Part shown: positions 2,725-27,209 of the stretch, one piece after another | Layout: each line of letters begins with the position of its first letter | Numbering within the stretch: the stretch's first letter is position 1 | Assembly (NCBI GenBank): GCA_027031495.1 | Contig: JALVQA010000004.1 | Coordinates: 56,070 to 120,069, forward strand | DNA length: 64,000 bases | Source of the DNA: Candidatus Moraniibacteriota bacterium | GTDB taxonomy: Bacteria; Patescibacteriota; Minisyncoccia; Moranbacterales; GCA-2747515 | Direction of reading: 5' to 3' | Program-made: the position numbers and the translations under genes | Notes under the pieces: generated by a model | Database searches by the model: none | Seen by the model: the letters and a program-made list of their open reading frames with translations, nothing else | What the model was told of the DNA's origin: nothing

Positions 2725-2758
2725 ACAAAAAATACACAATATATTGTGTATTTTTTGT
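2725..2758. terminator. 34-bp perfect AT-rich palindrome ACAAAAAATACACAATATATTGTGTATTTTTTGT; bidirectional terminator and/or operator
   Basis: A perfect palindrome flanked by A6/T6 runs sits between the 3' end of the PBP gene and the prx promoter. Confidence 0.4.
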
Positions 2759-2803
2759 TTGACAGTTTATTTGACAGCATGCGAACTTTATCGCATTGCA
2801 ATT

Positions 2804-5122: not shown

Positions 5123-5232
5123 ACAAAAAGTCTTATACCATACCAGTATACCGCAGAATATACAAAGTGACTATCAAATGCAAATTTTCGTGAATGAAAA
5201 ACAGCCCAAAAATTTCCTAATGAAAATAGACG

Positions 5233-6225
5233 TTAATCAAAAAGCATGTTGATGATTTCCGCCGATACATTGCGCGACACGCCTTCATATGGCTCATGAT
5301 GCATGCTTAACATTGGCGAATCATTTAGTTCTATTACCGTATAACCAACATCTTGAGGATTTTTTGTAATATCAGGTGTAAGAAAATCAATTCCAGCATA
5401 AGGAAGACCCGGTATCGCACGAATAATTTTTGTTGCCAAATCGCAAATGGCCGGATGCACCTTATCTGTGTAGTCAATGCTATCGCCACCAGTTGAGATA
5501 TTTGAGTTTTGGCGCAAAAAAATACGCTGACCTTTTGACGGAATACTATCCAATGTTAGAGATTTTGCTGCAAGAATTTTCAATATCTCATCGTCAACAA
5601 TAATGCGCACAATGGCCTTTTCGTGACCATCTCCACGACGTGGATCGCTGTTTTTCTCGTCAATAAGTTCACGAATTGTTGATACACCATCACCAATGAC
5701 ATTAGCCGGTACTCTATGAATAACGCCCAACGTTTTATCACGCGTTGCCAAAATGCGATACTCTTTGCCGACAGATTGCTCTTCTATTAAAAATGATGTG
5801 CCTTTTGTAGAAAATTTTTCTATGCAAGATCGTACTTCTTCATCCGTGCAAATATTGAGAAAAACATCCGTTCCCCAAGTACCTCCCGTCGGCTTGATAA
5901 CAAGCGGTTTTGGTAGCGTTTTACTATAAGCGATCGCCTCTTTAACCTCATCTTTGCAAAATGCCTGCCCGCGCGGTACACGAATACCACTTTTTTGCAA
6001 AAACTGTTTTGCAATATCCTTGTGTTTACAAATAAAATATGCATTGTAACTTAGTGACGGTAGTCTCTGCCCAATGATTGTCGCCACACGACCTTCATGC
6101 TCAATAATCAGGTGACTCCGCTTTGACTGTGGAAACATCTTACGCACAGCATAGCCGCGTCTTTGTGCCTCACGCGCAAGGAAATAATTACTTAAGTGAT
6201 TAAAATCGGACCTCGTAAAGTTCAT
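5233..6225 (-). CDS. ATP-grasp ligase, cyanophycin-synthetase-like ATP-grasp domain only (no Mur-ligase domain)
   Basis: VIGDGVSTIRELIDEKNSDPRRGDGHEKAIVRI and ...SNISTGGDSIDYTDKVHP...GLPYAGIDFL resemble the N-terminal ATP-grasp half of CphA. It is the last gene of a three-gene minus-strand cassette. Confidence 0.65.
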   Translation of the reverse strand: MNFTRSDFNHLSNYFLAREAQRRGYAVRKMFPQSKRSHLIIEHEGRVATIIGQRLPSLSYNAYFICKHKDIAKQFLQKSGIRVPRGQAFCKDEVKEAIAYSKTLPKPLVIKPTGGTWGTDVFLNICTDEEVRSCIEKFSTKGTSFLIEEQSVGKEYRILATRDKTLGVIHRVPANVIGDGVSTIRELIDEKNSDPRRGDGHEKAIVRIIVDDEILKILAAKSLTLDSIPSKGQRIFLRQNSNISTGGDSIDYTDKVHPAICDLATKIIRAIPGLPYAGIDFLTPDITKNPQDVGYTVIELNDSPMLSMHHEPYEGVSRNVSAEIINMLFD

Positions 6226-6258
6226 ATTTCGATATATTTAAGCTCAAGTTAAAGAATA

Positions 6259-7671
6259 CTACTTACTCACATCTACCAAAAATTTGCCAAGGTTGCGCTT
6301 GCCGATAATTGCAGGATACTGCAAATGCGAGCGATCCACAATGTTGACGCGCGCCGGAACGCGTACACCGTCCATAATAAAATACAGCTTCACAATTGGG
6401 CGAATTGTCACGCCACTGGATGACCACACAACAGAAACATCAACCAACCCCTCAATGGCAGAACCGTACTCCTTCATAAATACGCGCTCAGCAACAGCGC
6501 CATCACCTTTTTTTTCTATAGAAAATGCACTTAGATTAATTTTGTCAAATGCGTCAAGTGTCGATCCAAAACCAAGCTCGCGCGCAAGCTTACGGTCAAT
6601 AGACGTGGAATATGCGCCCGTGTCAATTTTTGCCTTCACTGTTACGCGCTTGTTGTCTTTACCGATAAACGTTACTTCTTCTACCGAGCCGATGACACGC
6701 TTTCCCGATGTTTGCTCAAGCACTTCCTCGATTTCACCACCAAAAAGATCTTTACCGACACGAACACCGCGTGCGACGCTCTTGATTTTAAGACCAGCAA
6801 CACGATCAAGACGCTCCTTGAGACCTGCCATATTCGCTACTTGAATAGATAGACCGGGACGTGCATTGAGTTCCAAAAATACCGGACCGCGGTCACGGTC
6901 AATAACGACATCGGCACCGAGAAAACCAAGCTTGCTCGCTTCCTGCGCCTTTACTGCCATTGTAAGGATGTCATCCCAATACGGAATTTTGATACCTGAT
7001 AGTGGCATGTGCGTATCCGGTGTACGTTCTATAATTTTTCGCTTTCCCTGCACAGCTGTCGTTGTTGTGCCTGTCGCCATGTCAATGCCAACACCAATAC
7101 CACCGAGTTGCAAATTTGCCTTGCCGCCTGATTTTTTTGTTGGCAAACGCAACATTGCCATAACAGGCACCTTGTTATACACAATGATGCGCACATCGGG
7201 AATACCGCGATAAGCATAAGGGCGAAAAAGTTTGAGAAGTGTTAGACGCTCCTCAAAAAAAGCAATATCTGATACACCGGAAAGTGAAAACATCCCCTCA
7301 ATAATGTTATGTACGTGTGTGTAAATATCGTGTGCCGTTACAACAGAGCCATCTGCTTTAACCCACGCATCTTTCATACCTTTCTTGCGCCCAAAGAGAA
7401 CGATAATACCGGCGCCACCAAAACCGCGATTCGGCTTAACAACAAAAGAATCCGGCAATTGCGACCAATCAAAGTTTTCTAGTTCTTCACGTGTACCAAT
7501 CTTCGCAATAAGTTCCGGCACAGCAACACCAGCTTTTTTGAGCACATTCTTACTCAAGATCTTATCATCAGAGATAGCACGTGCATTTTTAAGATTGAGC
7601 GGACGCACATAGTGAAGGTTTCGCGCATTCATGCCCAAAATCTTCTGTGATTTTCTCAACAGCGTAAACAT
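6259..7671 (-). CDS. RimK-like ATP-grasp ligase (alpha-L-glutamate-ligase-like) fused to a C-terminal retropepsin-like aspartic peptidase domain
   Basis: The N-terminal GMNARNLHYVRPLN...VVKPNRGFGGAGI..ELNARPGL is a RimK-related ATP-grasp. The C-terminal ~140 aa carry a KIDTGAYSTSID (DTGA) retropepsin-type motif, as in the RimK-associated peptidase family. Confidence 0.7.
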   Translation of the reverse strand: MFTLLRKSQKILGMNARNLHYVRPLNLKNARAISDDKILSKNVLKKAGVAVPELIAKIGTREELENFDWSQLPDSFVVKPNRGFGGAGIIVLFGRKKGMKDAWVKADGSVVTAHDIYTHVHNIIEGMFSLSGVSDIAFFEERLTLLKLFRPYAYRGIPDVRIIVYNKVPVMAMLRLPTKKSGGKANLQLGGIGVGIDMATGTTTTAVQGKRKIIERTPDTHMPLSGIKIPYWDDILTMAVKAQEASKLGFLGADVVIDRDRGPVFLELNARPGLSIQVANMAGLKERLDRVAGLKIKSVARGVRVGKDLFGGEIEEVLEQTSGKRVIGSVEEVTFIGKDNKRVTVKAKIDTGAYSTSIDRKLARELGFGSTLDAFDKINLSAFSIEKKGDGAVAERVFMKEYGSAIEGLVDVSVVWSSSGVTIRPIVKLYFIMDGVRVPARVNIVDRSHLQYPAIIGKRNLGKFLVDVSK

Positions 7672-7677
7672 GATTTC

Positions 7678-8370
7678 TTACTTTATATGTGCTAAAACAT
7701 CGCGGAAACGTATATATTCCGTCACACGTAGACCAGTCCAACGCCCCAAAAGAATGTTTGCGGGAATTGTCAAAAGGACTGCAAAAGGATGTAGAAAAAC
7801 AAAATTTTGAATCGTTTGCGATGAAAGAAGCGCATACCCACAAAGTGCTACGACAAGTGTTTCAACCGCAAGAAAAAGTGCGGTTTTTGTTCCTTTTTCA
7901 ATTTGCACAGCCACAAATTTCTCAGCGATGACAACAAGCACAATAAGCGGAAACACATACATAGTCGCAAAACCGGTGCGTTGCATGTACGCACCGAGAA
8001 TCAAAATACCAAGAACAGTAAATGATAAAAATGTCATTGTAATGGCCACACGTGGCAAATACAGTAAGCGGAAATGTTTCAAAATAACGCGCATCCCCAT
8101 GCCAATAGCAATAACGGCAATGTAAATCGCAATACCATAACGTAAATCATAAAACATGCTACCGATGTTGAAACTCTCATAGCGTGCATCAGAAATCATA
8201 AAAAAAACCAACGCAATGATGGATGGTGTATAGATGCCAAAGGCCTTTATACCAATCACTTGACGAAAGAATGCAACAAGCGTTGCGACAAGCGGAAACA
8301 TAAGAAGAATAAGAACGGTTTGATCTGGAATCCCCAAATTGACAACAATACTATTAATCCATGGACTCAT
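7678..8370 (-). CDS. Polytopic membrane protein (about 6-7 TM), first gene of the ATP-grasp cassette
   Basis: It has several long hydrophobic segments. It sits 6 bp upstream of the RimK-like gene on the same strand. No catalytic motif was recognised. Confidence 0.55.
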   Translation of the reverse strand: MSPWINSIVVNLGIPDQTVLILLMFPLVATLVAFFRQVIGIKAFGIYTPSIIALVFFMISDARYESFNIGSMFYDLRYGIAIYIAVIAIGMGMRVILKHFRLLYLPRVAITMTFLSFTVLGILILGAYMQRTGFATMYVFPLIVLVVIAEKFVAVQIEKGTKTALFLAVETLVVALCGYALLSSQTIQNFVFLHPFAVLLTIPANILLGRWTGLRVTEYIRFRDVLAHIK

Positions 8371-8426
8371 ACTATATGCATTAAGATATCACTTACCATC
8401 AGCATAGCAAAGTTTTGTGTAAAAAT

Positions 8427-8921
8427 CTATGCTACGCGATGCATAACACGACTTGCACTATGACAAAACGCAACCGCAAGCGCATCAGCCGCATCATCCG
8501 GTCGCGGCACAGCATCAAGGTGAAAAATCGTCTTTACCATCGCCTGCACCTGCGCTTTTTCAGCACGTCCATTGCCGGCAACAGCTTGTTTGACTTGTAG
8601 TGGCGTATACTCACCGATAGCAAGATGTGCACGCTCGGCACACAACAAAAGCACACCGCGTGCCTGTGCAACAGTAATAATTGTCTTTTGATTTTTAAAA
8701 TAAAATAATTGCTCGATACCCATCTCTGCAGGTGCGTACGTTGCAACAATCTGTTCAAAATCCCGTGCAATCTCTCCGAGGCGATCAGCATCACTCTTTG
8801 TGCTCTCAGTTTCAATACACCCGTGTGCAACGTGCTTAACACGACCACCACCGTAATCATCAATTATCGCCCACCCAACAATTGCCGTACCAGGATCAAT
8901 GCCCAAAATCCGCACACTCAT
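8427..8921 (-). CDS. ruvC: Holliday junction resolvase RuvC
   Basis: The N-terminal ILGIDPGTAIVGWAII and the length fit RuvC. It sits directly downstream of yebC, the classic arrangement. Confidence 0.9.
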   Translation of the reverse strand: MSVRILGIDPGTAIVGWAIIDDYGGGRVKHVAHGCIETESTKSDADRLGEIARDFEQIVATYAPAEMGIEQLFYFKNQKTIITVAQARGVLLLCAERAHLAIGEYTPLQVKQAVAGNGRAEKAQVQAMVKTIFHLDAVPRPDDAADALAVAFCHSASRVMHRVA

Positions 8922-9640
8922 TATGATGCAACGTTACTATAGATCTCTTGCACATCGTCACACCCCTCTATTGCAGAGTAAAGTGCGTCATATGACACCT
9001 TCTCATCATCACGCAATGTGATAGTCTGCGTCGGTATATATACGATACTCACGTCATCTACGGCAACGCCGTGTTCCTCAAGATGCGCGCGCACTGCGTG
9101 CACATCCTTGACAGCTGTCGTAATAACAATGGCATCATCACCTTTTCTCTCGACATCTTCCGCACCGGCATCAATTGCCAAAAGCTCTACCGCATCAGGA
9201 TCATCAGTTCGCACAACGATGCGTCCAACATGTTTAAATTGAAACGCAACACCACCACCGGAAACAAACTTGCCACCATTTTTCTTGAGTGTTGTTTTAA
9301 CTTCTGTGAGCGCCCGATTCGTATTGTCGGTTGCACATACGATAATAAATGCGCTACCACTCGGACCCATTGCTTCATACACAACTTCCTCAATACGTGT
9401 CCCGCCATCAATTTCGCCTGTTCCACGCTTAATTGCACGCTCTATATTATCCTTTGGCATATTAACTGATCGCGCTTTCTCAATCGCCATCTTAAGCGCC
9501 GCATTCATTTCCGGATCGCCACCGCCTTGTTGCGCAGCAAGTGTAATATTTTTTGCAACTACCGTGAAAATCTTTGCACGTTTTGCATCGGTTGCCGCCT
9601 TCTTGTGTTTAATACTTGACCACTTATTATGTCCTGACAT
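8921..9640 (-). CDS. yebC: YebC/PmpR family DNA-binding regulator
   Basis: The N-terminal MSGHNKWSSIKHKKA...AK.ITLAAQQGGGDPEMNAALKMAIEKA is the YebC signature. Confidence 0.9.
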   Translation of the reverse strand: MSGHNKWSSIKHKKAATDAKRAKIFTVVAKNITLAAQQGGGDPEMNAALKMAIEKARSVNMPKDNIERAIKRGTGEIDGGTRIEEVVYEAMGPSGSAFIIVCATDNTNRALTEVKTTLKKNGGKFVSGGGVAFQFKHVGRIVVRTDDPDAVELLAIDAGAEDVERKGDDAIVITTAVKDVHAVRAHLEEHGVAVDDVSIVYIPTQTITLRDDEKVSYDALYSAIEGCDDVQEIYSNVAS

Positions 9641-10166
9641 AGTTTTGCTTCTTATATCATTATGTTCGTATCGTGCATCATCGCTTCGTCAAAGATATTG
9701 AACGCAAAACACCTGCCATGCGGCAGGTGCGTGTATTCACATTCTGTGTGTAGAAAGGGATTTGAGCAAGTACGCAGTGTTAGGCCACCGCATACTGCGG
9801 ACCTTGCGAGCCAAAGACCGATATTTGCTGTGCGCACATTTCTGTGCAGACAGCAAACGAGGAGAGAGATTTTTCGGTCATTTGCACTATCATCAAGGTC
9901 CGTGCTCAGAACTGCGTGCCACAATACAAAAATTAATTGCACCGTTTGCAGCAGGACCCCCTTTCTACACGCAAAACACGAACACATCCACCAACTCTAC
10001 ATCAAGGAACACCACATCCACCAACAGTGTAGCATGTTTTACACACTCTGTCCAATTATTGCGTATAAGCCCATTAGGCTCCATGTATGAATATGTAATA
10101 CTAAATAAACAGAGTAGTTCTACAAGAAATATATGTATTGTTAAATTCCTTTGTACATAACTAATA

Positions 10167-10214
10167 ACAAAAAAATTGGAAGGAGGGGTAGTGGTGTTAC
10201 ACCACCCCTCCGCC
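10167..10214 (-). terminator. Intrinsic terminator downstream of the 10220..10645 gene
   Basis: A GGAGGGGT..GTGGTGT/ACACCACCCCTCC hairpin is followed on the minus strand by TTCCAATTTTTTTGTT. Confidence 0.5.
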
Positions 10215-10219
10215 GAGAA

Positions 10220-10645
10220 TTAATTTTCTTCCTCTTGATCCCCTGGCACATGCCAGTAGATCTCAAGTCTGTCTTCCTCCTCCCCAAGACCACCTTCGCA
10301 GAGTCCTTCTACCCTTTTTGTCCTTAAGTAGATTTTACGACCTGTATTTTTCACCACAAAAACTCCTTCTTTGCAGTCATTTTGACTATAAGCTCTTGGT
10401 GGATATGTATCCACCTGCGCTCCATCTTCTTCTCTTATTATTACAATTGACGGATCCAGCCTATGATACCAGAAGTAATCTCCTGGCTCCAAAAAAAAGC
10501 TTCGGAGAGCATCTTTTTTTTCGTTTAGCCTCTTCCTGAGGCCTCTTTCGTATTCATGCTTCCATGCTATTATATTGTTTAACTCTCTGTTTCTAACAGA
10601 GAGTACAACAATAATAACAACAACAAGAAGAAGAATAATGCTCAT
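10220..10645 (-). CDS. Hypothetical protein with N-terminal membrane anchor
   Basis: It has a hydrophobic N-terminus (IILLLVVVIIVVL), a terminator downstream and no recognisable domain. Confidence 0.45.
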   Translation of the reverse strand: MSIILLLVVVIIVVLSVRNRELNNIIAWKHEYERGLRKRLNEKKDALRSFFLEPGDYFWYHRLDPSIVIIREEDGAQVDTYPPRAYSQNDCKEGVFVVKNTGRKIYLRTKRVEGLCEGGLGEEEDRLEIYWHVPGDQEEEN

Positions 10646-11470
10646 TGTTTTCCCTCCTTAAGGGACTTGGCCACCAGATCGGTGGCGTTGAAAAAAAATG
10701 TCACTCGCTGTTACGAGCGACGCCATTACAAGAATTTACACACCATTCTTACAACAGCGTCGCTCACAAAAAAGTGCTGCATCTATATTGTACAGCGCCC
10801 TTTGTATAATTACCTACCTGCAGAAAGCATTTCTACAGGCCATGGGTGGTTAGACCATCACCTGCAGCAGAAACTTTCTGCAAGAAAGTTCTGGGCGTCG
10901 TCATGCCGTTCGTGCGGGTATCACGTTGGACCCACTCACACTACTAGGGCGCAGTGCGTGATATCACATTAGATATCATCTCTTTCACTCTTCGTTGAGA
11001 GACACCGCTCATGCGACTTTTTACATGTTCATAAAATGAATATTTTCCCGTGCGTTTCTCCTCTCTCTCCTCATTGTCTCTGCCTAAGAGACTGTGAGAA
11101 AGGCATAGAACGCACACATCTTATGACCATTGCTTCAACTAAGGTACTGCTCATGTAAAGAACATTCTGACTGTATTTGCAGTCAGTACGCTGCGCATAC
11201 TCTTGCGCAAATACTGACAACAAAAAGCAGTACATCTCTTGAGAGTATGTACTGCTGCATTCGTCAGTTGGCGGTAGTATATACTCTCTCCTCTGTCCGT
11301 AAGCATCGATTGCCTAAAATCGTTTGCGCTACGTCCGTGATGGTGCAACTATAGCATATATAAAAAATATTGTCAAGTACTTACTCCTACATTCTCATCC
11401 CAATCTTAATTCCTCCACAAAAAAGACATCCCTTGATATAATTGCAGATCTCTATACCTAACAGTTAACC

Positions 11471-12474
11471 ATGGACAGGGATATCTCACACACATATTAC
11501 ACCATCTCATCGTACAGTGATAGTAGCACTGTTGCGTGCCGGTGTTTCCCAAAAGGATATTGCCGCACAACTCGGCAAAACGCCGAGTGCCATCTCTCAA
11601 AAAAAGATTAAGCGCAACAATGATGCTGACGGTGTCTACAGAAAGCGTACCGCTCAGGAAAGAACGACACGTCGCAGAGTTACTGTCAATCAGCGCTTTC
11701 GTGAACTAGCTCATGATCCGTGGCTCCGTGCATATATGGAACGAAAGCTCAAGATGCGCTGGTCACCGGAGCAGATAAGTGGACGATTGCGACTGCAGTA
11801 TGGCAGTACTCTGGGAAAAGATAGTATATATGCTACGTCTACACTCACCACACGGACTTGGTACAATATCTGCGGTGCAAGAAAGGATCTTTTCGCAGGC
11901 GTTGCGGTACGCGCATCCGTGAAAAAGTGCGTGAACAAGCCAAAATCAGGCGCATTGACACGCAACCAACCATTGTTGAGGCCCGAGAGAGAATCGGTGG
12001 CTGTGAGGGTGATACAATCATTGGAAAATATATGACAAAGCGACTCGTCACAAATGTTGATCGCAAGAGCGGCTACGGCATGATTGATAAGTTGTCAGTT
12101 ATCACGAGAGAAACGATGTTTGCTACGCTGGAGAAGCGCTTTGGTACGGATTGCTAGAAAGAGAAAGTATACGTATACGTACAAAAACGGTGCGGAATTG
12201 GGCAAGGAAGATGCGTGGCTGGAAGAAAAAATCAAGATGGATATCTACAGAGCGTACCCCTACCACTCCTAGGAGCGTGTGTGTAACGAGCTTAGTACGG
12301 GAGTTCTTTCCAAAAGGTACAGACTTTGCTGGAATGTCGGAGAACGAGGTGCGGCGAATAGAGTGCCTGCTCAACAACCGACCTCGCAAGAGACTTGGTT
12401 ACAGAACACCACGGGAAGTCTTTTTTGAGAAAAAAATGTGCATTTTTTTGATTAAGATTTGGGAGAGAATTTAA
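11471..12474 (+). mobile_element. IS30-family transposase gene, degraded (at least 2 frameshifts)
   Basis: Three consecutive ORFs in different frames carry IS30 hallmarks. These are an HTH region (LLRAGVSQKDIAAQLGKTPSAISQKKIKRNN, WSPEQISGRL), a GGCEGDTIIG..LVTNVDRKSGY segment corresponding to GHWEGD, and a C-terminal FFPKGTDFAGMSENEVRRIECLLNNRPRKRLGYRTPREVF. Confidence 0.75.
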
Positions 12475-12716
12475 GAGTTTTGACAATCTCTCACAGTACA
12501 TGGATACTTATGTCAACTCCCAATTTGCCAGTGACACATGGGGCGAGGTTAACTATGTTGGCCAACACTTAAAGGAAAAGGCCTATATCCGGGAGTCCAT
12601 CAATGACTAGATCAAAGCACACGGCGGCAAGCACTATCTTCTCAAGGAATAGCACCATCAAAAAACATCGACATATAGGTGTTTTTTTGATGATGTAGCC
12701 TCCCGGAGGAAATGCC

Positions 12717-12960
12717 TTATTCTTTTGAACTATTCCCCATGCGCATGAGAAAGCATGTCAGCAAGCGCACAGGCACGCCTGCCACACCCAGTGCAAGCGC
12801 CTCTTCTTTGATTGCAGTCATGCGCGGTGCCATGTCAATGTGCACCCATGGCACATTCTCGTGCACAAATTGTTTGAGAAACGCCGCAGTTGTAATCGTT
12901 CCAGCATAGCGGTCCTGTCCCGGCGTAGTGGTATTGGCAATATCCGCCACATCGCTCCTG
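12717..12960 (-). pseudogene. Fragment (C-terminal ~75 aa) of an M17 leucyl aminopeptidase
   Basis: FRSDVADIANTTTPGQDRYAGTITTAAFLKQF..PWVHIDMA...GVAGVPVRLLTCFL aligns with the PepA C-terminus (NFADMANIGG..GGAITAGCFLSRF..WAHLDIAG..GATGRPVALLAQFL). The catalytic upstream part is absent. Confidence 0.5.
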
Positions 12961-13069
12961 AATTGCATCGTATTCTCCACCACCGGCACGAGTGTGACGA
13001 TACTCTTCTTGAGTTTGAGTTTTGCTGCTGCAAACAGTGTGTTCACAACCGCAACGCCACAACGCATCG

Positions 13070-13221
13070 CGAACATTGCGCGCAAGAAGCATGCCATAGG
13101 GACCGTAGTCATACACCGCCGCAAAGCCGCCGTAGATTTCGCTGTATGGAAAAACAAAACCCCGTCGCTTGGCAAACGCCGTGAGCGCATCCATTTTCTG
13201 TTCATCCATAAGATGCGCCAA
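13070..13221 (-). pseudogene. Fragment (N-terminal ~50 aa) of a class II glycyl-tRNA synthetase
   Basis: MDALTAFAKRRGFVFPYSEIYGGFAAVYDYGPYGMLLARNV matches the GlyRS N-terminus (KRRFFYDQAFAIYGG..GLYDFGP.G..LKNNI). Similarity is lost after about 50 aa. Confidence 0.5.
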
Positions 13222-13224
13222 AGG

Positions 13225-16071
13225 TTAGTAGACTATGAGATGTACATCTCTTTGCATCTTATTGCCAGCACGATCATGTGCCCAAACTCGCAAGATATGT
13301 TTTCCACGATTTATGCCTAAAGGAATAGTAAAAAACTTCTTCTTTGTCTTAACCTTTCTCCCGTTATCAATCTGATAACGATAATGCTTTATTCTAATAT
13401 CATCTTTTGCGTCCCACCAGATTTTATCACCAGGCTTTTTATGTAAGCGCCTTGGCAAATCAATAAAAACTGGGTCCTCTGTATCTACAATGACAGTATA
13501 CCTTTTTTTCTTAATACGATTGCCCTGAACATCATAAAAGCGTACTTCATATCTAAATTTTCCATCTTTCTTTACTTTAGCATTGAGCCTCCATTTGCCA
13601 TTTTTTCTAATTTCAGCTTTATCAACTGTTCGATTCTTATAACGAAGTTTGACCATTCCATTATATAGATTTTTTGTTGATCCTCTCAGTGAGAATGAGT
13701 GTCTATCAACATAAATCTTTTTACTGTTGATGTCTGTCCAGGGATCACTTTTTGAATCTCTTACTTTATCAACATCTGCATCAATCAAATTTAAAACGTA
13801 CTTATTTACGGCACTACACTGACTGTCTGAAAAAGGCACTTTTGATAAACCATTGTATCTTCGCATCATGACAGAATAAAGCACATTTGCAACTTCTCCG
13901 CGTGTCATTGATTTATTAGGGCAAAACTTTCCATCAGAACAAGGTTTCATCCACCCATTATTCACCATATAATATATATATGCGTGAGCCCAATGATCAT
14001 TAGGGACATCAGAAAAGGTATTGGTGGGGCCGCTGTTGGTTGGTGTGCATTTAGCATATCCGTATGCAAATGCACGCCCAATCAATGTTGCTAGTTGAGC
14101 TCGTGATATTAGAGCTTCAGGACAATACTTCTTTGGCCTCACAGAGCACCCTACCGTAATTTTTCTTGAGGCCAAGGCCTCAACAGCACCAAAGTAGGGC
14201 TGGCCAAAATGCACATCACTAAATGTGCCTACACCATTATAGTTTGTGTCGAAACCAAGGCTACGCGCAATTAACACAGCTGCCTGTCCCCTTGAAATTT
14301 TTTTATCGATACCAAATATAGCATCCCAGACGTTGCCAGTACCGTGTTGCACACCATTTGAAATATGGTGTGCCGATAAGAGCTGGGTAGCTTTCCAGTA
14401 TAAATTATTACGAGGAGTATCATCATAAATGAAAGAAGAGATAGGGATGCTCATATTGAGAAGCTGTTGTTGGACATGTAGAACTTCTACATCTCGTGGA
14501 TTCACACCCTGATGAATTGACAATGACGCTACAATACCAGCTACTTGTCCAATCATCATTACAATAGGCTGCAATCGCGTCGCTCCGTTTGCCAATCGTG
14601 TTACCCCGATATTCTTTTCTGCCGCAATCAGACCATTTATAGATTTTGGGATAAGTGCGCCTAGAGGCACCTGAAATGGACCTACAGCATCAGAAATATC
14701 ATCAGTAGTTTCGCCCAAATACGTTTCAAGATCACTATTTGCTCCACAGTTATGAAGATCTGTTACATAATCACCTACTGCAATCGAATTTACAGAGTTT
14801 CTCACAATACCGGCAGTTCCTGTGCGTTTGATATCTTTCGCTTTTAATGTTTCAATAGGAATTATGCGTGCACTCTCGCGGACATATGCCATAGGTGGCA
14901 TATGTTTTTCTAACCGATCTGGTATATCATTGCAGTTATTTTCCTCAATATTATAGGCAGTATCAAAACCTTCTTCTTTAGCCAAAGACCAATCAAGACC
15001 AAGTGTGTTCTGCCAATAGTAAAGTTGTTGTAATGTTTTCTTTTTTGCTTTACATAACGTATTAAAACGTTTCACTCTGTCATTTAAGAAGCTAGCATCT
15101 GCAGGATAGTCATTTTTTAGGTTGATAATCGTTTTTGTAATATTCGTACCATCTGACGCATGATAATCACCTGAACCAAGAGAGTCGGGCACTCCACGAT
15201 ACGCAAAAAATGGCTTTGGCCCATCAAGTCGCCAACTATACGCGCAGCCCGCTGCACTAGAACCTTCTTGACCAAAGAAACAGTTGTAGTAGTTTGTCCA
15301 TGTTGTTAAAGCAGCATCTGCTCCCGCAGAGTCATCACCAAAAAGCCATACCTTATCATTTTCATCTAAAATTAGGTCGGCAGGAACACCACCACTATAT
15401 TTTCGAACAACGGCTGTATAGGTAATATCCTGAATACATGCGTTTTCTTCTACATTAGAACTAAGGTTATTGGCAATTCTATAAGGTGATCCTGATAACA
15501 TTATGACATCCCCGTATTCTGTCGCATCAATTGTTACCGGCGCCTTCACAGTTTTTTTAACACCATCCTTGTTCTCAATAATTATCCCTGTTACTGTGTT
15601 ATTAGAAACTATTACAGATTTAACAGAATGTCGTTCGATAAGAGTGATGCGTGATTCCCGCTCAATCATGCTACGTAAAATCTTTTGTCCCACAAATGGC
15701 TCAAAGCAATACGTGGAGTCATTCCAATAGCATGTGCCAACAGACTTCCCTAGTCTTGCATAATAGTTTATAACTTGGTCAATAAATTCTTTATAAATAC
15801 CAGCATGTCGATCACGTGGACGAGAGTAGGCAGTATCATCCATGTTAGGTACTCCTGCACATGTCATCTGACCACCAATACAATCCGTTTCTTCAATCAA
15901 AACAACATTCTGCCCCATGCGTGCAGCTTGAATTGCTGCCGATATACCACCTGCACCCGCACCAACAACAATAACATCTGTCTCTATTGCAGCGAGCGCT
16001 TCTGATGTCATCACTAAAAAAAACAATATTACAAAAAAAAGTTTTGACATATTTTGTTTCAAATTTATCAA
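13225..16071 (-). CDS. Secreted FAD-dependent oxidoreductase with three SLH (S-layer homology) repeats and a C-terminal beta-rich domain
   Basis: There is a signal peptide and the Rossmann motif DVIVVGAGAGGISAAIQAARMG. SLH-like repeats are TFSDVHFGQPYFGAVEALA..ISRAQLATLI and TFSDVPNDHWAHAYIYYMVNNGWM..MTRGEVANVL. The protein is 948 aa. Confidence 0.7.
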   Translation of the reverse strand: MINLKQNMSKLFFVILFFLVMTSEALAAIETDVIVVGAGAGGISAAIQAARMGQNVVLIEETDCIGGQMTCAGVPNMDDTAYSRPRDRHAGIYKEFIDQVINYYARLGKSVGTCYWNDSTYCFEPFVGQKILRSMIERESRITLIERHSVKSVIVSNNTVTGIIIENKDGVKKTVKAPVTIDATEYGDVIMLSGSPYRIANNLSSNVEENACIQDITYTAVVRKYSGGVPADLILDENDKVWLFGDDSAGADAALTTWTNYYNCFFGQEGSSAAGCAYSWRLDGPKPFFAYRGVPDSLGSGDYHASDGTNITKTIINLKNDYPADASFLNDRVKRFNTLCKAKKKTLQQLYYWQNTLGLDWSLAKEEGFDTAYNIEENNCNDIPDRLEKHMPPMAYVRESARIIPIETLKAKDIKRTGTAGIVRNSVNSIAVGDYVTDLHNCGANSDLETYLGETTDDISDAVGPFQVPLGALIPKSINGLIAAEKNIGVTRLANGATRLQPIVMMIGQVAGIVASLSIHQGVNPRDVEVLHVQQQLLNMSIPISSFIYDDTPRNNLYWKATQLLSAHHISNGVQHGTGNVWDAIFGIDKKISRGQAAVLIARSLGFDTNYNGVGTFSDVHFGQPYFGAVEALASRKITVGCSVRPKKYCPEALISRAQLATLIGRAFAYGYAKCTPTNSGPTNTFSDVPNDHWAHAYIYYMVNNGWMKPCSDGKFCPNKSMTRGEVANVLYSVMMRRYNGLSKVPFSDSQCSAVNKYVLNLIDADVDKVRDSKSDPWTDINSKKIYVDRHSFSLRGSTKNLYNGMVKLRYKNRTVDKAEIRKNGKWRLNAKVKKDGKFRYEVRFYDVQGNRIKKKRYTVIVDTEDPVFIDLPRRLHKKPGDKIWWDAKDDIRIKHYRYQIDNGRKVKTKKKFFTIPLGINRGKHILRVWAHDRAGNKMQRDVHLIVY

Positions 16072-16149
16072 CTATGAATCTAGATAGATTTAACAATCCT
16101 CTCTCTTTGTCGGTGTCTTCTTTTGGGGCTCTCTTAGTAGTATACCACG

Positions 16150-16915
16150 CATTGTTACCCTGAAGACTGAAGATTATCCTTCTGTGAAAGCAAACATTGT
16201 AGAGAAACTGAAAATAGGATTGAATCCTGATGAAATCAGTGGAATGATGAATAGAGAACGGCACGACATTATTGCATCAAAAACAACCATCTATCGATGG
16301 TTGTACAGTGCACGTAGACAGCAATATTGTTGGTATCTGTATACACAAGCGGTATGAGAAGAAGAAACGAAGAAAGAAGACCAAGAATGTCATGATTCTC
16401 AATCGGACAAGCATCTAGAAGCGACACCGTGGCGCAATGCGTCGGACACGCTATGAACACTGAGAGGTGGATGCCATTGTATCACTACAAGGAAATCGAG
16501 GGTCACTGTACGCTGCATAGGAACGCATAACACGGTTTGTGCGGATTTTCAAGTGTACTTCTCTGCGTGCACGCGAATATATCCAAAAACACCGTGCCGC
16601 CACAACACAGTGCAACGTTTTGTTCATGACATTCGATAACGGGATTGAAAACAAACAGCATCAGGAGCGCGATGTTCCAACTTTCTTCTGTGACCCCTAT
16701 GCTTCGTGGCAGAAAGGAAGTGTAGAGAATGTGAACAAATTAATCAGACAATATACTCCCAAGTGAATAGAAATTGCCAGAGTGCCGGTAGCATATATTC
16801 AGTTGGTGAGAGAGCATATTAACAGCAAGTCACGGAAAATTCTGAATTACAAAACCGCCTATGAGGCGGCGGTGGAGCATGGTGTATTGAAAAGTGAGAA
16901 GTGCTCTAATTGAGG
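16150..16915 (+). mobile_element. Second IS30-family transposase remnant (N-terminal HTH missing, frameshifted)
   Basis: LNPDEISGMMNRERHDIIASKTTIYRWLY corresponds to WSPEQISG..ETIYR.IY. The segment FDNGIENKQHQERDVPTFFCDPYASWQKGSVENVNKLIRQYTPK matches the IS30 C-terminus. The tail NSKSRKILNYKTAYEAAVEHGV lies in another frame. Confidence 0.65.
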
Positions 16916-17018
16916 GTGAAATTTAGGTTAGTATACGGCGACGCATTATATAATTATAATGCATTTTTGTCAATTGATTTGATTTTTTCTTTTTGCCATC
17001 TTTTTTTATGATTAAACA

Positions 17019-19693
17019 TCATCTGCGTTGCATTTTTAGCGCGTCTTTCACAGACTGCTCATTTAAACCTGTAAGAGAAAGCGCAATGACAGCCGGATGA
17101 ATAGAAACGTCTGCTAAGTGTGTACGATCAATGACATACATTTCATCATACGTATTCACTTTTTCACTTCGCATATACACCGCAATCATTTGCACCGTAT
17201 GCGCAAAAAGTGCATTAAACCACGCCATGGCACGTCTATACCATGTATCGTGCACAGATGTTGCGCGTGGCGCTGGCGCATCTTTGCTGTACATATTGCT
17301 TTGTTTGGTATGTGTGCCAAATTCATTTTCCCACGCGCGCGCACTGATAGCACGCGCACGTTCATCACCACTACCGCCGCTATCTACCTGCGTTTGTTTT
17401 ACTTCTTTTTCTGCAACATGCGGCACATCCCAGACCCATCCACCACCGTCAGCATGCGCGCGTTTGCGATATACCGCATCATCTGGAACTGTTTTATATC
17501 CACTCGGCGGCGTGTATTTTTTACTGTATGCAATTGTTCCATCTGGCCTACGCACCGCGACATAGCCACCTCTATTCGGTAGCGTGATCGCACTGTATTT
17601 TGTATAAATCTTTTTCTCTTTACCTGGTGCAAGAACAATTTTTTTGTGCAACGGATGATTAACACTTTTATTTTTTGTGCTTCCCGTTACAATGCTCCAT
17701 CCACGCAAATTAACACTCTTTTTACTTTTATTTTTAATAACGACGTACTCCGTGCCAGTATCTTTGCCACGTGGATTTGGTGCGATGGCGACAATTTTGA
17801 TTTTTCTGTGTGGATATCGGTGCACATCTACAGAGAATTGCCGCATCACCTCTTCGCTTGCATCTTTGACGCGTACTTGTACCGTATAGTGTCCTTGTGC
17901 ATCATATGTGTGCGTTGTACTAGCTTTATAACTTCTGTGTCCATCACCAAAATCCCATCTGTACGAAAGTGCTTCCCCATCGAGATCATGTGCACGTACT
18001 GCAAAGTGTGCTGTGACATCTTTATAGATCTCGTCATCATACTCCAGTACATCAATAATCGGCAACATATTAAAGATATTGCGTGCACCGGGCGTGAGCG
18101 TTTTACTCCATCTGTAGACACCGCTTCTTTCATAATTCAGTGATACGTCCTCAGGTGCACTGCGTGTGTAGTGCAGGTGATCAACAACAACATACTCATC
18201 ACCGCGTGACGCCCACAGCGTAACACTATCACCATTGTTATTAAGCGCAAAACCAAAAGTCGGACGTCGTAACAGCAAAAATCCCTGCGGTGGCACTGCT
18301 ACGGAAGCAGGAAACGTATATCGTCCCGTTATGCTTTTATCACCAAGCACCCACCCGTGAAGATTTACACTTTTTGTATTCGGATTGTACAGTTCAATAT
18401 ATTCATTTATACTTTCGTCACCAGACGGGTTTGGTAAAATCTCATTGATGCGAATCTTCTCGCCCGCATAAGGCACTACGCACGGTTCTGTGCGAAAAAG
18501 TTGATGCGTACACTTCTTTGCTAGAGATGTATCACTGCGCGTGTGTGCAACATATGTATCGTTAGAAGGATTTTGACGATTTTTCCGTAAAAGGCAGCAT
18601 CCTTGTGGCCATGACCCCACGCTACAATATCACGCAGAACACGTTGATTATCAAGGAGAATAATTGCATTATTATCAGCAAATGACTTTTTGCGCACAAA
18701 ATCTGCCTTCCCTCTGTATGCACCATCCGCACGCGCAATTACAATCATGCCATGTGCCGGCAGGCGCACAGGTCCATCACCACACTCTTTTGTACCAAAC
18801 GTGCATATATTCTCACTTGTGCCGAATAGTGTGTCATCACATGTTTTAATTATCTTTGTCGCCGTTCGTCGTCGCACGTGCCATCCGGTAATGTCAACAG
18901 TGTGATCTGTCGTATTTTTAATGATAAGCGCATCATCTTTGTCGTGTATGGCAACAGCTGCAATAATGATATCGGACGATGATTTTTTGTAAAGACGCTT
19001 TTTGTAAGCATTGAGATCACATGTCTCTTTATTACTATCTTTGCCGTCATCATCACGCTTGTGCACCTCTTTTTCCGCTGCATCTGCACTTTCGTTTTTA
19101 TCACCTTTAAGCACACTTTGTGTGCTTGCAAAGTTATTTTCTTTCCCACTTTCTGACGAATCCTGACTGTATTTATTATTCTCCTTTGTGTTATTTTTTA
19201 TGTCGCCACCCTCTTGCCGCTTGTCATCTTCCTCCGCAGGTGTGTTATTGTTATCGCGTACAGTGTGTCCTTGCGTAGTATTATCATCAGAAGCATCACT
19301 CTCCCCATTTTCTTGCGTATGCTGTACGTTACCGCCCTCACTATTCCCGTCTGCTGTATCTACACTTTTTTCTCGCTGTACCTCTTCTTCTCTATTTACA
19401 TTATTGTCATCACCTTCATCTGCACTAGCGTCTATGTTGTCGCTTTCACTGTTATTTTCTGTAGCACTCCTCCTGCTGTATGCATTATCCCCTTCACTTT
19501 CGCTACTCACATTCTCCATAACGACACTTTCATATCCTTGATGTGTATCTATGTCTTCTTCTGCGTAAATTATACCGCCACTGTAAAATATCGCCCATGA
19601 AAAAATACTCACGCCCCATGCCGTGAGTATTCTAAAAAGAAAAAACATACGTCTCTCAACGCGCTCACGCCACCCCATCTTCTTTACCCTCAT
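17019..19693 (-). CDS. Large surface protein with three lamin-tail domains (LTD) and a PKD domain, interrupted by a frameshift near 18585-18600 in an A5 run
   Basis: There is an N-terminal signal/TM segment and an acidic low-complexity region. The first LTD is HDKDDALIIKNTTDHTVDITGW; after the frameshift come a second LTD (INEILPNPSGDESINEYIELYNPNTKSVNLHGW), a PKD domain (YRWDFGDGHRSYKASTTHTYDAQGHYTVQV) and a third LTD (PNPRGKDTGTEYVVIKNKSKKSVNLRGW). The two ORFs overlap in different frames at 18521-18620, and the start was chosen at an internal Met to avoid the upstream gene. Confidence 0.65.
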
Positions 19694-20288
19694 TTCTATC
19701 ATTACGGTTATCATCAGGAAGATTTTCCTCCGATTCATTATATGTCTTCCTCTGCATTTCCACAAGCATTGCTTTTACTGCATAAGGATCCGGTACGCTA
19801 CGAAAGAGGAAGCGTGTATGCTCTGCAGCGGTCTGCACTTCAACATCACCATAATTTAAAAGTGTCGGAATAATGCCACGTACATTACTTGTAATATCTT
19901 GAATTGTGTGAAAATACAATTCGCTTACCTGACGCGAAAAGAGACCTTTTTGTTCAATATTAACAACACGACGATTTGTTACAATCCATACATCAAGCCA
20001 ATAATCAATCCATGTTATAAAACCATAAAACCACAAGAAAACCACAAGAAAACTATCAACAAGGAGAATGAGTGGCATAATATGCTCAACACCAAGCGAT
20101 GATTCAAATAACCCAACAAAAAGTGTTCCCGCAAGCATTGTAAGAGCAACAAACGTTATAAGCACGTAATGCATCACAATATCAAACCAGTGTCGATGAA
20201 TTACTGAAAGAATAATCTCATCGTCGCGTTGCCCACGAAAGTGATAATGTGAAAAATCTTCTATACTATGTCCTACTTTCTTCGTCAT
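19665..20288 (-). CDS. Bacterial PH-domain (bPH_2/YdbT-like) membrane protein
   Basis: Two TM helices are followed by a PH-like region (WIVTNRRVVNIEQKGLFSRQVSELYFHTIQDI), the typical DUF304 architecture. Confidence 0.55.
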   Translation of the reverse strand: MTKKVGHSIEDFSHYHFRGQRDDEIILSVIHRHWFDIVMHYVLITFVALTMLAGTLFVGLFESSLGVEHIMPLILLVDSFLVVFLWFYGFITWIDYWLDVWIVTNRRVVNIEQKGLFSRQVSELYFHTIQDITSNVRGIIPTLLNYGDVEVQTAAEHTRFLFRSVPDPYAVKAMLVEMQRKTYNESEENLPDDNRNDRNEGKEDGVA

Positions 20289-22360: not shown

Positions 22361-23500
22361 CTATTTGCGAATTGGCATAACAAGATAGAGAAATCGCTCA
22401 TCATCATCACTTTTTGCAACCGGTGTAATAACAACCGGTGATGCCGCACCCGAAAATGCAATACGTACTTTTTCACTACCGCAACGACTTATGCCATCAA
22501 GTACATAACGCGTATTGAGATAGATTTCTTGTACTTCGCCATGCGCTTCAACCTGCAGTGTTGTCACATTTTCTCCACGATCCTGCGACATTGCACTAAT
22601 TACACATGTGCTTTCATCAGGATTTATCGTCACTTTCATATCACTCGTTGTATTATTTGCAAAGGCATCAGCAAGTCGCAGTACGCGCTCACATTCCGCA
22701 CGCGACACAATGATGTGCGTTGCCGTCTCTTGCGGAATAATCTGCTGATAGTCAGGATATGTTCCAGAGATAAGACGCGAAACAATTGTCACGCCATCAA
22801 CTTCAAAAAAGATCTGACCATCACTTATATGCATCATTATCATTTTTGTCGCACTATCAGAAAGAATATATAAAATTTCAGCAATAGCACTCGCCGGGAC
22901 AATAATGGAATCAATGTCTTTTTGTATAGCTGCAGCTTCAATCGGTGCCACACTTTCACTAAGACGGAAACCATCTGTTGCAGCTACACGCATAGTATTA
23001 TCAGTAAAAACTATATTCACACCGGTTAATTCAGGGCGCGCTTCCGTTTTTGCAACACTTATCATCACACGTGACAACACAGAGCGAAATACATCTGACT
23101 GCACTGTTACTTCACCATAGATATTTTCCTTTTGCGGTATCGGTGGAAAATCAACTGGATTATACCCCTTTATTACTGCACGTGACGATCCACTTTCTAC
23201 AGCAATGTCAGTGTCAGATACCTGAGACACAGTTACCTGTGCACCATTGTCAAGTGATGCAATAAAACTATTGAGAAGTTGTGGTGGAATAACAACACTG
23301 CCAACTTCTTCAATTTTGCCACTAATTTCAATACGCACACCCATATCAAGGTTTGTAGCAGCACACGCAAGTATATTATTTTCTGTTGAGATAATGACAT
23401 TTTGTATAATCGGCAACAGCGATTGCTTTGCAAGAGCTTTTGTACTGTAGCGTAGTGCCCGATCAAGGTGTTCTTTTGTGCATGTAAATCGTAAAGCCAT
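22361..23500 (-). CDS. dnaN: DNA polymerase III beta sliding clamp
   Basis: MALRFTCTKEHLDRALRYSTKALAKQSLLPIIQNVII is DnaN-like. The start was moved to the internal Met at 23500 because the track ORF begins in the AT-rich upstream region. The gene follows dnaA. Confidence 0.9.
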   Translation of the reverse strand: MALRFTCTKEHLDRALRYSTKALAKQSLLPIIQNVIISTENNILACAATNLDMGVRIEISGKIEEVGSVVIPPQLLNSFIASLDNGAQVTVSQVSDTDIAVESGSSRAVIKGYNPVDFPPIPQKENIYGEVTVQSDVFRSVLSRVMISVAKTEARPELTGVNIVFTDNTMRVAATDGFRLSESVAPIEAAAIQKDIDSIIVPASAIAEILYILSDSATKMIMMHISDGQIFFEVDGVTIVSRLISGTYPDYQQIIPQETATHIIVSRAECERVLRLADAFANNTTSDMKVTINPDESTCVISAMSQDRGENVTTLQVEAHGEVQEIYLNTRYVLDGISRCGSEKVRIAFSGAASPVVITPVAKSDDDERFLYLVMPIRK

Positions 23501-23732
23501 AATAGTTATTACAATTAAATCAAATATATTTAGTTTATTATTATTAGCGCTGTGGAAAGTGTGGAAAAGTGCGATAAATGTAGTTATTATGCACACACTT
23601 TTCTGTGTATTATTAATGAATAAATGCATGTTTTTGTGTGCAAGACTGTAGATGTGGGATATCCACTTTTATGTGCACAGAGTATAACACAGTTTTATAC
23701 ACATGCACATGCGTACTTATGCACAATTTTAT
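23501..23732. promoter_or_regulatory. dnaA-dnaN intergenic DnaA-box cluster (oriC part)
   Basis: The AT-rich spacer carries TGTGGAAAG (23551), TGTGGAAAA (23560) and an overlapping inverted TGTGGGATA/TATCCAC (23653-23666). Confidence 0.5.
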
Positions 23733-25175
23733 TCACAGAGTGTGTAATTTTCGTTTCAATGTGTCAATGGTATCCTTTAGTGCCGCATCAGCAATAAGTT
23801 CTTTTTCAATTTTACGACACGCATGTATCACTGTTGTGTGATCACGTCCACCGCAGTGTGCGCCAATTTCAGGGTATGAATATGTAAGTTCCTCACGCAA
23901 AAGAAACATGGCAATTTGACGCGGGCGGACAATTGTTTTTTTGCGCACCTTTCCGATAATGTCGTCAGGTGTAATATTGAAATGTTGTGCGACAATATCA
24001 ATAACAGAAGAAGCGCTTCGTGCCGGACGACGATTCACGATTGTTGGTGCAAGAATTTCCTCCACAACAGCGCGCGAAGGGATTTTTTGCTGAAAAGTGC
24101 AGATAGCGACAACTTTATTGAGTGCGCCTTCCAGTTCACGAATATTACTTGCCACATTACGTGCAATGTAGCGTGCCGCATCTTCCGGAAGAATAATATC
24201 TTTTTCATCTGCTTTTTTTTGAAGAATTGCCACACGCGTTTCAAAGTCTGGTTGTGAGATATCAGCAATCATGCCACCTTCAAAGCGGGAACGCAAGCGA
24301 TCTTCCAGTGTTGCAATTGCATGCGGTGGTCTATCACTTGAGATGATAATCTGTTTATTTTTTTGGTAGAGAAAGTTGAAAATGTGAAAAAATTCATCTT
24401 GCGTTTTTTCTTTACCGGCAAGAAACTGAACGTCATCAATAATGAGGAGATCAATTGTTTGATAAAACTTTTTAAAATCTGATATTGTATTGTTATGTAT
24501 AGAATCTATAAGCTCGCTAGTAAAACGCTCTGATGATGTGTAGAGAACGCGCTTTGTTGGATCAGCACTAACAACAGCATTACCAATCGATTGAAGGATG
24601 TGTGTTTTACCAAGACCAACATCACCATAGATAAATAGCGGGTTGTATACTGTGCCAAGCGATTCACTTACAGTGCGACATGCGGCATGAGCGAGTTCAT
24701 TATGTTGCCCAACGACAAAATTACTGAACGTATAGCGAGGGTTGAGACATGTATTATAGGGCGGTGTTGTTTTTGCTGTTGGTTTTTGCTGAATATTTTT
24801 AGCCTGTTGAATTGGTTGTTTTTGCTGCTGTATACTTCGCTGTGGCGCTTTTTTGAGAATTGTGCTGATTGTTGAATTTCCTGTTCGTTTCTGCGTGACA
24901 GCGTCGATAGATTGTGGCGCACGTTGGGGTTGTGGCGAAAGAGTGCAATGGATACGTGTAATACTTTTGTCATGATTGCGCAGCGCTTGTAAAACAATGT
25001 CAGAGCATTTTTTCTCAATCCACTCCTTCGCAAATCCATTCGGTGTAGTGATAGTGGCGCACCCATCGTCGATTGATTGAATTGATGTGTTTTTAAACCA
25101 TGTAATAAAATTTGCACGAGAAATGGAGAGTTCTATTTCACCGAGTGCCGCCGCCCATAATTGTTGAAAATCCAT
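23733..25175 (-). CDS. dnaA: Chromosomal replication initiator DnaA
   Basis: It has the Walker A NPLFIYGDVGLGKTHIL, an AAA+ core, and a C-terminal DnaA-box-binding domain (RKKTIVRPRQIAMFLLREELTYSYPEIG). Confidence 0.95.
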   Translation of the reverse strand: MDFQQLWAAALGEIELSISRANFITWFKNTSIQSIDDGCATITTPNGFAKEWIEKKCSDIVLQALRNHDKSITRIHCTLSPQPQRAPQSIDAVTQKRTGNSTISTILKKAPQRSIQQQKQPIQQAKNIQQKPTAKTTPPYNTCLNPRYTFSNFVVGQHNELAHAACRTVSESLGTVYNPLFIYGDVGLGKTHILQSIGNAVVSADPTKRVLYTSSERFTSELIDSIHNNTISDFKKFYQTIDLLIIDDVQFLAGKEKTQDEFFHIFNFLYQKNKQIIISSDRPPHAIATLEDRLRSRFEGGMIADISQPDFETRVAILQKKADEKDIILPEDAARYIARNVASNIRELEGALNKVVAICTFQQKIPSRAVVEEILAPTIVNRRPARSASSVIDIVAQHFNITPDDIIGKVRKKTIVRPRQIAMFLLREELTYSYPEIGAHCGGRDHTTVIHACRKIEKELIADAALKDTIDTLKRKLHTL

Positions 25176-25404
25176 AGGAAGTAACTCTTTATTTTACGTA
25201 TAGATGATGACATGTTTAGTATAACACGGATAAGCGTTATACATGTGGATAAGTTGATAAATCTGTGGATAAGTTGTGTAAAATGTGTATATTTTGCACT
25301 TTACTCAGGATAAATAGTAAAAAAAGATGCAAGTTATCCACAGAAATAAATAAAAACACTGTGGAAAACAGTGTTTTTATAATTATTGCAATGATATATT
25401 TTAT
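25176..25404. promoter_or_regulatory. DnaA-box cluster upstream of dnaA (oriC / dnaA promoter region)
   Basis: In 229 bp of AT-rich DNA there are TGTGGATAA at 25244 and 25264, TTATCCACA at 25334 and TGTGGAAAA at 25370. Confidence 0.6.
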
Positions 25405-27162: not shown

Positions 27163-27209
27163 ATAGAGTAAGTGTTTATGATTTGTGATTTTATAATTCC
27201 AAAAGCGGT

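Follow-up and report, generated by a model that had tools for sequence, protein, structure and literature searches.

Two unrelated IS30 relics, gene debris, and an intact S-layer homology flavoprotein gene in a variable slot of a Candidatus Moraniibacteriota genome

The 64-kb stretch analyzed here (the window; positions 56,070 to 120,069 of contig JALVQA010000004.1 in assembly GCA_027031495.1, Candidatus Moraniibacteriota bacterium) contains a 7.4-kb patch (positions 9641-17018) between yebC and the gene of an LTD-domain surface protein. Within it lie two decayed insertion sequences (IS) of the IS30 family, here called A and B, a stub each of a glycyl-tRNA synthetase (GlyRS) gene, glyS, and an M17 aminopeptidase gene, pepA, and a gene for a secreted flavin adenine dinucleotide (FAD)-dependent oxidoreductase with S-layer homology (SLH) repeats. 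The patch as a whole reflects ordinary genome wear and tear in a small, low-GC genome: it is a variable region in which one intact gene sits beside foreign-looking debris and two dead IS30 elements that are unrelated to each other. The original prediction had described it as an acquired island, delivered in the manner of a composite transposon whose insertion truncated housekeeping genes. Lineage-specific content is borne out by the corresponding slots of relatives, which differ, whereas the composite-transposon form is not. We consider it probable, although far from certain, that the slot grew to its present size by separate events, namely, independent IS insertions and the arrival of a foreign fragment, followed by trimming through deletion.

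Contigs of relatives were recovered by a metagenome scan with the LTD/PKD-domain protein followed by local tblastn. The backbone RuvB-bPH-LTD-gap-YebC-RuvC-7TM-ATPgrasp-ATPgrasp-PBP is kept in four metagenome relatives (L087, L088, L093, and L094), in which the homologues of the LTD/PKD gene are 35 to 43% identical. The gap between the LTD gene and yebC measures 0.2 to 3.4 kb in these four and holds small unrelated genes: a single 185-amino-acid (aa) secreted open reading frame (ORF) rich in G, R, and Y in L088 (∼0.8 kb), one 230-aa ORF in L087 (∼0.8 kb), unrelated small ORFs together with a TrmB-like regulator in L093 (3.4 kb), and ∼0.2 kb of sequence in L094. In L089, genes for a membrane protein and for a secreted protein of 826 aa follow the LTD gene. 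The oxidoreductase, IS30, glyS, and pepA were found neither in the four slots nor after the LTD gene of L089. No DNA is shared between the relatives and the patch, and a similar block was not found among 131 fetched loci. Since the gaps of the relatives are short and filled with unrelated small genes, the whole 7.4 kb is lineage specific, and the oxidoreductase, for which synteny in relatives would have spoken against acquisition, is non-syntenic. Across the lineage, the position after the LTD gene behaves as a variable slot. A search of genome contigs with YebC gave no synteny information; its top match was 52% identical (Anaerolineae), and Candidate Phyla Radiation (CPR) groups reached 43 to 46%.

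The broken reading frames of relics A and B were stitched into conceptual proteins and scanned against NCBIfam. Both match the model NF033563 (IS30 family transposase; cutoff, 80 bits), A at 11478-12444 over model positions 5 to 267 of 267 (E value, 1e-44; 153 bits) and B at 16184-16913 over positions 46 to 267 (6.6e-38; 131 bits). Compared with annotated plasmid IS30 transposases by tblastn, A is 33 to 35% identical over 95 to 98% of its length and B is 31 to 33% identical over ∼95% of the query. Two frameshifted, nonidentical IS30 remnants on the plus strand are thus confirmed at the predicted positions, but A is larger than had been proposed, as its inverted repeats show.

A carries three frameshifts and in-frame stops. 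When it is compared with the IS30 transposase of E. coli, two residues of the DDE triad (the first Asp and the Glu) are kept and the second Asp is replaced by Lys; these lesions indicate that the transposase gene is dead. The core of its terminal inverted repeat is 28 nucleotides (nt) long and 82% complementary (11383-11410 and 12451-12478), and with small indels the repeat reaches 11370 and 12486. The left and right inverted repeats (IRL and IRR) align with a score of 42, against a mean of 15 and a maximum of 30 for shuffled sequences. TTGACA hexamers face outward at both tips. The left flank of A reads ATA/TTGTCAA, and a target duplication amounts at most to TT/TT if the ends are set at 11383 and 12478, with none if they are set at 11370 and 12486. 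B is 5′ truncated, as its model match begins only at position 46; it is without the N-terminal ∼120 aa (the 5′ third) and the left inverted repeat, and its right end was placed only within 16914-16944. Its reading frame is shifted once and interrupted by four in-frame stops, and all three DDE residues are still recognizable in the alignment to E. coli IS30. An alternative genetic code of the donor, suggested by the TGA codons in B, was rejected as an explanation, since TAG stops and the frameshift are also there.

A and B are two different IS30-family elements, and the patch is not a composite transposon. No DNA similarity between them was detected by blastn or tblastx, and at the protein level the best segment, 62 aa long, has 27% identity. 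A has inverted repeats of its own, and the comparison of its IRL with the reverse complement of the right end of B gave a score of 22, under the 95th percentile of shuffles (24). They are not halves of one split element either, because the catalytic C-terminal region (model positions 46 to 267) is present in both. A contig that Logan assembled independently from run SRR13622960 agrees with window positions 2729-16305 at 100% identity, so that A, both stubs, the oxidoreductase, and the beginning of B are not products of misassembly. The Logan contig ends at 16305, directly past a palindrome with a 9-bp stem (ACAACCATCGATAGATGGTTGT) at 16283-16305 within relic B, and possible causes of this stop are a repeat, variation within the population, or just coverage.

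Truncated passenger genes do occur in composite transposons of the IS30 family, Tn6330 being an example, and a pair of direct-orientation copies (like ISApl1-mcr-1-pap2-ISApl1) that brought the oxidoreductase and the debris together and then decayed would account for the common strand of A and B, for the 3.6 kb that they bracket, and for the lack of the patch in syntenic relatives. Tn6330, however, consists of two copies of one IS. The divergence of A and B far exceeds what decay would produce in two copies that still score 131 to 153 bits, both inverted repeats of A differ from the right end of B, the interior is compositionally mixed, and the breakpoints of the stubs are away from the IS ends. 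No duplication flanking a composite unit was found; around the whole A-to-B interval, no matching short repeat was seen, with the end of B as imprecise as stated above. This explanation is already largely refuted, and we regard it as very improbable.

The two stubs are what they had been taken for. The GlyRS N-terminal stub matches three glyS models (5e-14 to 5e-11) at positions 1 to 53 of 454 to 565, and the M17 C-terminal stub matches PF00883 (6e-16; positions 244 to 309 of 310) and NF002073 (positions 427 to 502 of 505), with similarity that extends by eye to ∼13058. Neither has a complete catalytic core. The glyS head is fused to the pepA tail at ∼13050, out of frame and with no spacer. 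The pepA tail retains its native stop codon, which is followed by a terminator hairpin, 230 nt from A. This hairpin (12654-12695) is stable on both strands (fold z scores, −3.05 and −3.9) and looks like a bidirectional terminator, one that the pepA tail would share. The spacer translates into a plus-strand tail (…WGEVNYVGQHLKEKAYIRESIND, stop, IKAHGGKHYLLKE, stop) without a Pfam match and may hold the 3′ tail of a plus-strand gene.

That the stubs are native genes cut by an IS, as the original prediction had proposed for its insertion scars, was rejected: they abut each other, and their breaks are not at IS ends. The relatives are without glyS or pepA at this locus, so the stubs are not leftovers of resident genes, and no second copy of either gene was found within the window. 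Rather, the stubs look imported. Their GC content is 0.51 (M17) and 0.54 (GlyRS), and their GC content at third codon positions (GC3) is 0.57 in both; only 0.2 to 1% of native chunks of stub size reach a GC3 of at least 0.55, and the relatives have a GC content of 0.36 to 0.41. We infer that they are GC-richer foreign debris that probably arrived with A. Word-indexed homologue searches with the GlyRS and M17 stubs returned 10 and 3 matches, respectively, all of which were short fragments; neither a donor nor intact glyS and pepA genes of this genome came up in them.

Composition separates the parts of the patch. The 43 ORFs of the window have a GC3 of 0.37 ± 0.05 (mean ± standard deviation). 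The GC content is 0.46 in A and 0.43 in B, and the IS pieces deviate from the codon usage of the window (z scores of −1.0 to −3.2). The oxidoreductase gene (GC, 0.39; GC3, 0.30) has synonymous codon usage typical of the window (z score, −0.55), so that codon usage, a suggested check on the island, deviates in the IS pieces but not in their intact neighbor. Such native-like codon usage suggests that the oxidoreductase gene has resided here for long or was acquired from a genome of similar composition.

One alternative is that the whole 7.4 kb, or 11370-16944, is a single mosaic foreign block from another low-GC bacterium, plasmid, or phage, acquired by recombination or natural transformation with its IS elements already dead and its stubs already in their present state. 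The lack of the patch in relatives and the deviating codon usage of the IS pieces and the stubs are consistent with such a block, and the tight spacing of the oxidoreductase and glyS suggests that they were neighbors before they arrived. We nevertheless find a single block unlikely, given the native-like codon usage and GC3 of the oxidoreductase, the sharp GC step from 0.35 to 0.52 at 13222, borders without an integrase, att-like repeat, or tRNA, and the absence of a similar block from the fetched loci. Alternatively, the oxidoreductase could be ancestral to the slot and have been lost or replaced in the sampled relatives, with only the IS elements and stubs arriving later. Its codon usage would fit a native gene, its family is common in Patescibacteria-like genomes, and the different surface or secreted genes of each relative point to a high turnover of the slot. 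Set against this, none of the readable slots (L087, L088, L093, L094, and L089 downstream of LTD) contains the gene, and its top non-self match among 5.8 billion proteins is just 42% identical, which gives no sign of vertical descent in the sampled relatives; an ancestral oxidoreductase seems distinctly unlikely to us.

Under stepwise growth of the slot, which we prefer, the slot would hold the oxidoreductase gene, its product tethered to the wall through the three-repeat SLH module, as a gene kept intact by selection. B would have inserted immediately past a promoter located behind the LTD gene, probably between this promoter and its target, and would later have lost its left third by deletion and gathered stop codons. 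GC-richer foreign DNA may then have landed downstream of the oxidoreductase with A, glyS and pepA sequence, and possibly the tail of a third gene. Deletions would have cut the redundant foreign genes down to the junction of glyS head and pepA tail while the transposase of A decayed. The promoter in question is a match to the sigma-70 consensus at all 12 positions, located between the stop of the LTD gene and B and aimed at the antisense strand of B and at the oxidoreductase; about 0.007 such matches are expected by chance in the 6.3-kb region. It overlaps a palindrome with a 10-bp stem (GCATTATATAATTATAATGC). An extended −10-like motif, TGGTATACT, recognized by eye at ∼16133-16141, may now serve the oxidoreductase as a putative promoter element.

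Several observations weigh against this scenario. The nearest relatives are just 55 to 68% identical to the window in conserved proteins (RuvB, PBP, and ATP-grasp), and gain here is not strictly separable from loss elsewhere. The glyS start lies 3 to 15 nt past the oxidoreductase stop, an operon-like junction that is odd for a random recombination joint. The foreign character of the stubs is a matter of composition over 160 codons whose synonymous-codon likelihood is not strongly deviant (z scores, −0.16 and −1.34), and they have no close homologue, the best identities in the word-limited search being 71% for GlyRS and 54% for M17. A target-site duplication for A is not seen. With regard to the chemistry of the enzyme, the PDB matches of its catalytic part are generic FAD folds with template modeling (TM) scores of about 0.3.

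The oxidoreductase is the one intact gene of the patch. With a TTG start it encodes 948 aa; the public gene call begins 7 codons later, at the ATG at 16050, and gives 941 aa, and a look-up of the exact 948-aa sequence had no match. Secretion had been predicted and is supported by a signal peptide recognized by eye, with Lys in its n-region, a hydrophobic core of 15 residues, and an ALA/A site, and by a modeled helix at residues 3 to 22. The FAD domain matches PF12831 over model positions 1 to 416 of 416 with 266.9 bits (cutoff, 27). All 54 invariant columns of a 50-sequence family alignment are kept, including GxGxxG and several cysteines, and E60 is present. The AlphaFold2 model is confident over residues 30 to 740. 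Pfam alone is clear only for the third SLH repeat (34.6 bits), with the second below threshold (17.5 bits; E value, 0.004) and the first undetected. The modeled SLH region (∼546 to 740) superposes on the three-repeat SLH domain of Bacillus anthracis Sap (3pyw) with a TM score of 0.87 and a root mean square deviation of 2.7 Å, and this superposition confirms structurally the three repeats that had been predicted.

More than 2,000 database proteins have the architecture of FAD_oxidored plus SLH; in some, dockerin or PG-binding modules replace or accompany the SLH part. Named carriers include Paceibacterota, Patescibacteria (many), and Microgenomates, and also Acidobacteria and Deltaproteobacteria. 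Two homologue contexts (P0004 and P0010) have no shared neighborhood, and every cluster in the protein cluster look-ups is a singleton. The PDB contains no characterized close homologue by sequence or fold, and literature searches on the function of PF12831, on SLH with FAD oxidoreductases, and on IS30 in CPR found nothing relevant. Most likely, the enzyme uses bound FAD to oxidize or reduce a substrate outside the cell or at its surface. The step from SLH domains to a secondary cell wall polymer, made in the original prediction, is reasonable by textbook knowledge; such a polymer would be pyruvylated, with a CsaB-type pyruvyl transferase. A pyruvyl-transferase or csaB-like gene was not found among 20 Pfam-scanned ORFs of the window, nor was a second SLH protein found within it; the window carries Wzy_C, GT2, and Wzx genes.

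Table 1. Features of the 7.4-kb patch and of the genes that anchor it (window coordinates; residues refer to the oxidoreductase)
Feature	Position	Strand	Basis or remarks
yebC, conserved left anchor of the slot	8921..9640	-	Pfam TACO1_YebC_N/Transcrip_reg; same protein on Logan contig; syntenic in L087, L088, L093, L094
ORF-poor stretch, GC 0.43	9641..11369	.	Only ORF is a 141-aa predicted membrane protein (10220-10645, -)
IS30-family element A, full length, 1,117 bp	11370..12486	+	NF033563; IRL 11370-11410, IRR 12451-12486
Spacer	12487..12716	.	Translation; A/T-rich hairpin 12654-12695
M17 leucyl-aminopeptidase C-terminal stub	12717..13058	-	PF00883, NF002073; HMM-supported part 12717-12986
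Class II glycyl-tRNA synthetase N-terminal stub, ∼55 aa	13048..13221	-	Three glyS models, positions 1-53
Intact secreted PF12831 FAD-dependent oxidoreductase gene	13225..16071	-	Pfam; AlphaFold2 model; codon usage
Signal peptide	residues 1-27		By eye (MINLKQNMSKLFFVILFFLVMTSEALA/A)
FAD domain	residues 32-537 (14461-15978)		PF12831
Three-repeat SLH anchor	residues 546-738 (13858-14436)		Pfam and structure
Lysine-rich Big_13/Ig-like tail	residues 793-948 (13228-13695)		Pfam
IS30-family element B, 5′ truncated	16140..16944	+	NF033563; tblastn; alignment to E. coli IS30
Consensus match to a sigma-70-type promoter, TTGACA-17-TATAAT	16945..16973	-	12/12 consensus positions
LTD/PKD-domain surface protein gene, conserved right anchor of the slot	17019..18620	-	Pfam LTD and PKD

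At the left end of the patch, the ORF-poor stretch next to yebC has no recognizable domain or RNA in a six-frame Pfam scan and an Rfam search at E ≤ 1, and it is without similarity to the slots of the relatives. At the right end, the LTD-domain ORFs 18521-19765 and 17019-18620, both on the minus strand, share 100 nt but are read in different frames. In relatives, this position is taken by one LTD/PKD gene of 626 to 815 aa, and the pair (17019-19765) may be a frameshifted or split gene. The window also includes the replication origin, with dnaA at 23733-25175, dnaN at 22361-23629, and a minimum of the cumulative GC skew near 23 kb, and the patch lies ∼7 to 14 kb from dnaA. Five tRNA genes are clustered at 29166-29788 in the origin region (22361-29800).

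Elsewhere in the window, 44005-49108 is probably a second acquired patch. A tyrosine recombinase is encoded there at 45385-46200, next to small ORFs in AT-rich sequence (46200-47837; GC, 0.32), along with two genes of the Wzy_C (O-antigen-ligase-like) type, and the Wzy_C gene at 47837-49108 (GC, 0.54; GC3, 0.585) has the most deviant codon usage of the window (z score, −3.35). Inside the Wzx/Wzy/GT2 surface polysaccharide cluster, a family 2 glycosyltransferase is encoded on the minus strand in two overlapping ORFs, the N-terminal half at 49928-50812 and the C-terminal half at 49144-50019, and may be another split gene (49144-50812). A further 1.5 kb (39211-40709) is AT rich (GC, ∼0.30) and ORF poor and contains a tRNA-Arg(CCT) gene at 39282-39354. 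ORFs of at least 150 aa span just 69% of the window. For a small genome this share seems low, and additional stretches that are decayed or noncoding are suggested by it.

These results bear on how the locus should be annotated. The glyS and pepA fragments should not be counted as housekeeping genes or as phylogenetic markers of this genome, and each IS30 relic should be entered as a pseudogene of its own, separate element. The locus neatly illustrates how, in a reduced genome, a variable slot gains IS elements and foreign DNA and is then eroded by deletion. Wider potential lies in the flavoprotein with PF12831 and SLH, as no protein of this architecture has an assigned substrate or a solved structure. 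More speculatively, and with a small probability in our view, the slot might be a surface protein cassette site at which CPR-like ultrasmall bacteria exchange secreted proteins, the flavoprotein class might serve episymbiosis, and the glyS-pepA junction might be a fossil of uptake between phyla. If so, SLH-tethered PF12831 flavoproteins would be a large uncharacterized class of extracellular redox enzymes important for episymbiosis. S-layers are reported to be prevalent in Patescibacteria (bioRxiv 10.1101/2024.05.28.596244).

Compared with known members of the IS30 family (IS30 of E. coli, IS4351, and ISApl1), A and B match the transposase model and are 31 to 35% identical to annotated members, and A, at 1.1 kb, is typical in its ∼30- to 40-bp terminal inverted repeats and in the −35-like hexamers that point outward from its two ends. 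Unlike those elements, both relics are dead, are remote from each other and from characterized members, and show no clear 2- to 3-bp target duplication. The arrangement resembles Tn6330 in its same-orientation pair of IS30-family elements around a cargo gene and a truncated passenger gene, whereas the flanking elements here differ, their ends are unrelated, and the composition of the interior is not uniform. With respect to the SLH proteins of Gram-positive bacteria, the oxidoreductase shares the three-repeat module of Sap (PDB 3PYW/6BT4), matched by sequence at an E value of 3e-9 as well as by fold, and it follows the layout of SLH-tethered exoenzymes, in which the SLH module comes after a signal peptide and a catalytic domain. 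It differs in that repeats 1 and 2 are divergent, SRGQ, SRAQ, and TRGE stand in place of the motif TRAE, a PF12831 flavoprotein serves as catalytic partner, and the host, judged by gene content and nearest hits, appears to be CPR/Patescibacteria-like. Similarly, fumarate reductase, flavocytochrome c3, and 3-ketosteroid dehydrogenase flavoproteins have in common with the oxidoreductase a Rossmann-type FAD domain with GxGxxG and a conserved acidic residue, and Foldseek assigned a probability of 1.0 to FrdA, SdhA, Fcc3, and KstD. These generic two-domain FAD folds were the only PDB matches of the catalytic part, at TM scores of ∼0.2 to 0.45 and 10 to 19% identity, and no solved structure comes close to the substrate domain. 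In contrast to these flavoproteins, from which no substrate is transferable by homology, the oxidoreductase is predicted to be extracellular and has at least six conserved cysteines.

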